Shown here in pieces: positions 38,468 to 38,714 of a DNA stretch of 64,000 nt. A model generated the notes under the pieces. That model was not told the DNA's origin and did no database searches. It was given only the letters and a program-made list of their open reading frames with translations. Within the stretch, counting starts at the first letter, position 1. Each line of letters opens with the position of its first letter. Source of the DNA: Escherichia coli (lineage in GTDB: Bacteria; Pseudomonadota; Gammaproteobacteria; Enterobacterales; Enterobacteriaceae); NCBI RefSeq assembly GCF_003334785.1, contig NZ_QOWV01000004.1. The stretch is one strand, 5' to 3'. The position numbers and the translations under genes were made by a program.

Positions 38468-38714
38468 TTGTTATACCTCTTGAATATTCCTGATAGGGCA
38501 AGTCTTCACCCACCCCGGCTGTTCGGCCTGCCCGGCATAACTCCTTACCGGGACCAGAAGCAAAAAAATACCGACCCGGGTACAAGTCCCAGGTCAGCTA
38601 CAATTCACATTTTGATAGTCATTTTACCCTGAAGTTCCCGAAGGGTCATCGTTTACTTTATAGGGCGTTGCGCCGTAGTATGACGGCTCGATTCCAGGTT
38701 GTTAGCGCGAGATT

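Follow-up and report, generated by a model that had tools for sequence, protein, structure and literature searches.

The closest described system is GraL, the leader RNA of greA in Escherichia coli MG1655, which was defined by in vitro transcription, transcript release assays, Northern blots, and lacZ fusions (Potrykus et al. 2010, PMC2836576). In that work, promoter P1 gave RNAs of 50-60 nt and promoter P2 gave RNAs of 40-50 nt, together named GraL, with 3′ ends spread over ~10 nt, Northern clusters at ~55 and ~45 nt, and the authors' own 3′ ends accurate to ±2 nt. Approximately 60-66% of transcripts terminate in this leader, both in vitro and in vivo and at all growth stages, and GraL is released in vitro without added factors (PMC2836576). 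A later study placed the P1 products at 49-59 nt and the P2 products at 37-47 nt and, numbering from P1, assigned the 5′ tail to +1..+18, the hairpin to +19..+48, and the greA AUG to +150 (Dylewski et al. 2019, PMC6829880).

The same leader is tied to control of GreA by its own product. GreA lowers its own expression 2-5 fold, and this repression depends on residue D41, which is catalytic, as well as on the presence of the GraL sequence (+1..+48) in cis. Both the tail (+1..+18) and which bases make up the hairpin arms are important, not the pairing alone; a scrambled 5′ tail weakens the repression, and the untranslated region after +59 is dispensable (PMC6829880). When GreA rises, GraL rises and read-through falls (PMC6829880). 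In a purified system, however, GreA has no effect on termination (PMC2836576, PMC6829880). The authors thus invoke an accessory factor or an indirect route for the GreA effect, and, in their view, Nus factors, Hfq, and sigma-E can be ruled out as that factor (PMC6829880). As autoregulation by GreA has not been reproduced in vitro, the cis mechanism is incomplete.

GraL also resembles the 5′-UTR small RNAs of E. coli catalogued by Term-seq (Adams et al. 2021, PMC7815308), in which a leader terminator likewise releases a short RNA while read-through yields the mRNA. It differs from other such leaders in that (i) it carries no ligand-sensing domain or alternative structure, (ii) its effector, GreA, raises termination instead of relieving it, and (iii) termination occurs at ~10 sites.

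The window analysed here, a 64,000-nucleotide (64-kb) stretch of E. coli DNA, equals MG1655 U00096.3 positions 3290249..3354248, an assignment anchored on a published 3′-end coordinate. Within it, the leader-controlled gene greA (minus strand, 37991..38467, 158 aa) and the divergent dacB (plus strand, 38715..40148) bound a 247-bp spacer at 38468..38714. Both genes were placed from the list of open reading frames and from the RefSeq annotation of the identical MG1655 record, which agrees on the spacer, and the divergent arrangement and spacer length given in an earlier note on this DNA proved exact. A 601-bp query spanning the spacer (window 38300..38900) is 100% identical to MG1655 and is present in 5426/5426 complete E. 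coli genomes. The greA-dacB junction itself was encountered at 5428 places in these 5426 genomes, with a second copy in one genome and one copy on a plasmid.

A scan of the whole window against Rfam placed RF01769 ("Enterobacteria greA leader") on the minus strand at 38684..38563, directly upstream of greA on the same strand, at 127.5 bits against a gathering threshold of 60 (E = 6.3e-23) and over the full length of the model (positions 1-124 of 124). Other families above gathering in the window were SraG, the S15 leader, naRNA4, the rimP leader, two tRNAs, and ArcZ (20979..21150, 21380..21494, 23007..23077, 27776..27876, 27968..28041, 31827..31910, and 60329..60436), all expected for that part of the MG1655 chromosome.

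The greA strand of the spacer carries a hairpin at 38570..38598, which was identified by terminator scan, folding, shuffles, and covariation, and which consists of an 11-bp stem and a 7-nt loop. The 5′ arm lies at 38598..38588, the loop (ACUUGUA) at 38587..38581, and the 3′ arm at 38580..38570. A U-rich tract follows at 38558..38569, made up of A (38569), U7 (38568..38562), GC (38561..38560), and UU (38559..38558), such that the RNA reads GCUGACCUGGG / ACUUGUA / CCCGGGUCGGU and then A-U7-GCUU over 38598..38558. A consensus scan independently returned this minus-strand terminator as GCTGACCTGGG-ACTTGTA-CCCGGGTCGGT followed by ATTTTTTTGC. The element matches the published description of an "11 bp stem followed by AU7GCU2" (PMC2836576). 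It occurs once in the window, and a stem of 11 bp with a U tail arose in 0 of 2000 dinucleotide shuffles of the spacer. Upstream of the hairpin lies an 18-nt single-stranded tail at 38599..38616 (+1..+18, AUCAAAAUGUGAAUUGUA), unpaired in the fold. The leader folding that the earlier note had proposed as a check showed the 54-nt GraL RNA to be a single hairpin with no alternative fold (-19.6 kcal/mol, z = -3.97); a fold of the whole spacer was uninformative (z = -1.5).

That note had pointed to two GC-rich palindromic strings next to an A/T run as consistent with a leader-terminated small transcript. Both can be read on the plus strand, ccggcataactccttaccggg over 38532..38552 and taccgacccgggta over 38569..38582, and A7 (38562..38568) separates them. 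Of these strings, taccgacccgggta does belong to the terminator hairpin, of which it covers the 3′ arm and some of the loop; the 5′ arm of that hairpin (plus-strand cccaggtcagc, 38588..38598) had been missed. The other, ccggcataactccttaccggg, lies outside GraL. In the minimum-free-energy fold it forms a 7-bp minus-strand hairpin at RNA positions +65..+85, within the read-through leader. A stem of at least 7 bp appears in 74.5% of spacer shuffles, the segment has z = -0.32, and it diverges too fast to be aligned beyond close relatives. We rejected 38532..38552 as a terminator part or regulatory hairpin, given its chance-level stem and its position downstream of all GraL 3′ ends. As everything after +59 can be deleted (PMC6829880), this segment falls in the region dispensable for autoregulation.

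The read-through greA 5′ UTR, at 38468..38557 on the minus strand, is carried by about one-third of transcripts and contains a conserved ribosome-binding site, AGAGG, at 38480..38476. A 10-aa upstream open reading frame (MPGRPNSRGG, with AAGGAG and an ATG at ~38538) was considered there and rejected: just 2 nt separate its ribosome-binding motif from the start codon, E. albertii has GTG in place of that ATG and has lost the stop, and the other species have no equivalent.

Two overlapping promoters directly precede the hairpin, at the expected distances and in conserved sequence. P1, at 38621..38649 on the minus strand, comprises a -35 element ATGACC (38649..38644), a 17-bp spacer, and a -10 element TAAAAT (38626..38621); these hexamers were assigned here by consensus scan rather than taken from PMC2836576. 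Across 24 Enterobacterales, TAAAAT and the ATGA of the -35 element are invariant in our alignment. P2 spans 38611..38638 on the same strand, with GGAACTT (38638..38632), a 16-bp spacer, and TCAAA (38615..38611), i.e., a perfect GGAACTT-N16-TCAAA at 38638..38611, which we take to be the sigma-E consensus. Its GAACT is invariant or nearly so in the same 24 Enterobacterales, and its -10 element overlaps the first 6 nt of the GraL tail. The sigma dependence itself comes from the literature, in which P1 has been demonstrated to depend on sigma-70 and P2 on sigma-E in vitro (PMC2836576), and in which the published core sigma-E regulon includes greA.

Taking the greA AUG (38467) as +150 (PMC6829880) puts the P1 start at 38616 on the minus strand, where the transcript begins with A followed by U. 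This is consistent with ApU priming and with the hairpin numbering of +19..+48, and leaves 98 nt of spacer upstream. Being derived from published text, the position carries an uncertainty of ~1-2 nt; it may indeed be off by that much, since TAAAAT would otherwise stand at -10..-5, an unusually short gap. The P2 start falls at 38605 or 38604 (minus strand, both bases A), an ambiguity that arises because one paper puts it "11 bp" downstream of P1 (PMC2836576) and the other implies a 12-nt shift through product lengths of 37-47 versus 49-59 nt (PMC6829880). The ROSE supplement, in which genome-wide start-site data were sought, contained no entries for greA or dacB.

The GraL ends, which the earlier note had left unplaced, can now be assigned: starts at 38616 and 38605/38604, and 3′ ends at 38568..38558. 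P1 RNAs of 49-59 nt that begin at 38616 end precisely over this U-rich tract, an imprecise termination zone for which published Term-seq supplies the major end. Adams et al. (PMC7815308) place a 3′ end on the minus strand at 3328811, which is 96 nt ahead of the greA open reading frame, with read scores of ~65,000 and ~61,000 in two growth conditions. Their printed 61-mer matches 38553..38613 on the minus strand, so that the 3′ end is window position 38563, the sixth U of U7. A GraL ending there measures 54 nt when started at P1 and 42-43 nt when started at P2, and each length falls within its published range. The 3′-end mapping between 38468 and 38620 that had been suggested for the minus strand is thus already in print, with a positive outcome. 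The same row gives a Rho score of 0.67 and "No" under "significant Rho termination region?"; its intrinsic terminator score is 5.2, and values of at least 3.0 suggest intrinsic termination (PMC7815308). It bears no label for a characterized regulatory element, and GraL is not named in the Term-seq paper; our literature search for GraL together with Term-seq or RIL-seq found nothing.

Strong minus-strand Term-seq 3′ ends also occur at MG1655 3328068 and 3327992 (window 37820 and 37744), 170-250 nt beyond the greA stop and antisense to the 3′ end of yhbY. A hairpin at 37924..37946, between greA and yhbY, gives the yhbY 3′ end at 37949. As the ends at 37820 and 37744 lie past this hairpin, greA transcripts appear to cross it into the yhbY antisense.

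We conclude that the spacer element is almost certainly the E. coli K-12 element known as GraL, at once an attenuator in the greA leader and a small RNA. The suggestion that a leader-terminated small transcript of this name lies on the greA strand is borne out by the RF01769 match, the identity to MG1655, and the Term-seq end. Against the GraL of PMC2836576 and PMC6829880 there is no difference to record: locus and sequence are those of the type example, the published numbering maps self-consistently onto the window, and the stem, the AU7GCU2 tract, P1/P2, and the product lengths all map onto 38616..38558. GraL here is already known and experimentally characterized, and no new biology is claimed for it.

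In this leader, two strong overlapping promoters direct transcription toward greA, one sigma-70 dependent (P1, 38616) and the other sigma-E dependent (P2, 38605/38604). After 18 nt from P1 or 6-7 nt from P2, the RNA folds into the 11-bp GC-rich hairpin that precedes A-U7-GCUU. This Rho-independent terminator releases about two-thirds of transcripts, with ends over ~11 positions (38568..38558) and the major one at 38563. The released RNAs of 37-59 nt constitute GraL, with the remaining third reading through to form greA mRNA.

As a first alternative, GraL could be a mere by-product of a constitutive cis attenuator that tunes greA, with no function in trans. The cis requirement is well shown (PMC6829880), GraL expressed from a single copy can hardly be seen on Northern blots, the 2010 work identified no direct target, and GraL overexpression affected neither a greA fusion nor GreA abundance (PMC2836576). 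The overlapping P2 -10 element accounts for much of the conservation of +1..+12. The evidence for a trans role comprises overexpression phenotypes (PMC2836576) and a reported nudE target (as relayed in PMC6829880): unlike a scrambled RNA, overexpressed GraL conferred a fitness advantage and changed the expression of >100 genes (PMC2836576), and later work, in the form in which PMC6829880 conveys it, names nudE as the likeliest trans target in the authors' view and also lists synthetic-lethal partners. These effects make the by-product reading rather unlikely in our estimation. The nudE gene is absent from the 64-kb window.

A second alternative takes the upstream part of RF01769 at face value, such that its hairpins, or an antiterminator, would compete with the terminator and switch greA on or off in the manner of a riboswitch-like leader. 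The family traces to a screen for conserved premature terminators (Naville & Gautheret 2010, PMC2965389), in which "a clear antiterminator structure" was reported for the greA/rnk leaders; Weinberg 2010 was considered as the source and discarded, as greA is not mentioned there. The RF01769 consensus indeed draws three hairpins ahead of the terminator, and the match in the window covers the model from end to end. However, the first position of the match is 68 nt ahead of the P1 start and the last one is inside the U-tract, with its 3′ hairpin being the GraL terminator. The three 5′ hairpins occupy 38684..38614, over the -35 and -10 elements of P1 and P2 and an invariant block; since they either precede the P1 start (38616) or straddle it, neither P1 nor P2 transcripts contain them. 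Among 24 Enterobacterales, these hairpins show no covariation, with one compensatory cell and 363 of 500 shuffles performing as well; the columns that vary break pairs, and the segment folded as RNA (z = -0.74) is no more stable than shuffled sequence. We therefore rejected the three 5′ hairpins as RNA structure, on account of this lack of covariation, their z of -0.74, and their position upstream of the mapped start.

Nor does the transcribed portion leave space for such a switch. With merely 18 transcribed nt ahead of the hairpin and a single-hairpin fold, P1 and P2 RNAs have, as we see it, no room for an antiterminator, and the other primer-extension 5′ ends, P3 and P4, are read by the authors as post-transcriptional products (PMC2836576). 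The promoter is unnecessary for autoregulation, which survives replacement of -1..-36 and the region upstream (PMC6829880), and termination efficiency is constant through growth (PMC2836576). No transcribed competing structure with covariation support was found, and a switching leader of this kind is very improbable.

An origin of the GraL 3′ ends in Rho-dependent termination or nuclease processing, in place of intrinsic termination, is scarcely credible: the ~10-nt spread is unusual for an intrinsic terminator (PMC2836576) and Dylewski et al. left a conditional Rho role possible (PMC6829880), but a purified transcription system yields the same array with RNAs released from immobilised complexes, the pattern is unchanged in rnc and rne mutants (PMC2836576), an 11-bp stem with U7 is a textbook intrinsic signal, and the Term-seq comparison with and without bicyclomycin, from which the Rho and intrinsic scores quoted above derive, shows no sensitivity of the 3′ end to Rho inhibition (PMC7815308).

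About two-thirds of RF01769 is conserved promoter DNA and only its last ~55 positions would be RNA, the terminator part being sound. Within the promoter portion, invariant columns across 24 species define a block at 38646..38681 that can be read on both strands, with ATACTA(C) and AAAGTAAACGATGA on the minus strand; its two segments flank a variable stretch, the length of which is fixed in 23 of 24 species. Taken from the plus strand, the block is TTTACT-N18-TAGTAT (38652..38681), 25-30 nt before the dacB ATG, and matches 8 of 12 consensus positions, which is under the scan threshold. Judged from sequence, we read the block as promoter DNA that would serve as the greA P1 -35/UP region and possibly also as a putative divergent dacB promoter. 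In the published experiments, no dacB transcript was seen under the conditions used (PMC2836576).

To define the reach of GraL, greA loci were collected from 80 species and the upstream 250 nt aligned for 24 Enterobacterales. In these, 87.5% of the alignment cells in the stem are paired, 10 of the 11 pairs have changes on both sides, and the covariation values are reached by 0 of 500 shuffles; the signal peaks at register 0 and collapses on sliding. Earlier work had found 17 of 18 stem mutations in four species to be structure preserving (PMC2836576). A covariance model trained solely on the transcribed segment, from 19 species with Erwinia and Rosenbergiella held out, recovers both held-out leaders at ~38 bits. 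It recovers the enteric leaders except those of Photorhabdus (loci L016 and L018 of our set) and Klebsiella sp. BIGb0407 (L011). RF01769 gives ~80 bits for Photorhabdus and 32.6 bits, below threshold, for Plesiomonas.

The three leaders that escape the model have a hairpin at the GraL position followed by a degraded U-tract (e.g., CUAUUGUUUAUU); Photorhabdus is still scored by RF01769 through the promoter block. Leader termination may have been weakened or lost in the Photorhabdus and Klebsiella sp. BIGb0407 lineages.

Outside the enteric group, greA is likewise divergent from its upstream gene in Pasteurellaceae, where a strong hairpin and U-tract stand 30-60 nt before the greA ATG in 6 of 7 members; comparable leader hairpins occur in Aeromonas and Shewanella (loci L026, L029, L031, L033, L035, and L045 for Pasteurellaceae, at ~1140..1180; L037/L040 for Aeromonas; L055-L057 and L062 for Shewanella). 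These hairpins often share the stem base of GraL, (A/G)CUG...CGGU, and differ in lying 30-60 nt from the ATG as against ~100 nt for E. coli GraL. Pairing between the U-tract and the purine-rich ribosome-binding region is predicted in several of them. Searches of the Pasteurellaceae, Aeromonas, and Shewanella leader hairpins gave no match to RF01769, and the enteric GraL model reached a best E of 0.2-3 on the same leaders, in Shewanella only. Homology to GraL, with no match to the one model and a marginal one to the other, was not demonstrable. As neither model detects them significantly, we treat these non-enteric hairpins as analogous leader terminators and not as family members. They are also not new in kind, since greA/rnk attenuators have been noted from Proteobacteria to Firmicutes (Naville & Gautheret 2010, PMC2965389).

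The dacB-greA spacers of Pasteurellaceae match a different Rfam family on the greA strand, RF02904 (AaHKsRNA69, Aggregatibacter sRNA 69 candidate), at 1037..1119 in L031, 1044..1126 in L033, 1031..1112 in L029, and 1035..1116 in L026. Each match runs from the start codon of the divergent gene to ~20 nt before the leader hairpin, and the region contains an invariant TTGC.ATTTT ... TAATA that resembles a -35/-10 pair. By this resemblance, RF02904 may also be largely promoter DNA, or may represent a local counterpart of GraL.

Among the factors that act on E. coli RNA polymerase, GreA is the principal one for transcript cleavage and fidelity, and the GraL leader keeps the level of GreA steady. 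To the published account of that leader, our analysis adds the exact coordinates of its parts, confirmation by Term-seq, an indication of which repeat matters, and a warning on the promoter content of RF01769. Beyond this, we find it conceivable, if on balance doubtful, that RF01769 is mostly a promoter alignment in which 38652..38681 is the dacB promoter, and that a GraL-type terminator with the conserved (A/G)CUG...CGGU stem base goes back to an ancestor of Enterobacterales, Pasteurellaceae, Aeromonas, and Shewanella. Were this true, initiation at greA and dacB would be physically coupled, with the dacB promoter sharing DNA with the greA P1 -35/UP region, and autoregulation of GreA by leader termination would be old and widespread in Gammaproteobacteria.
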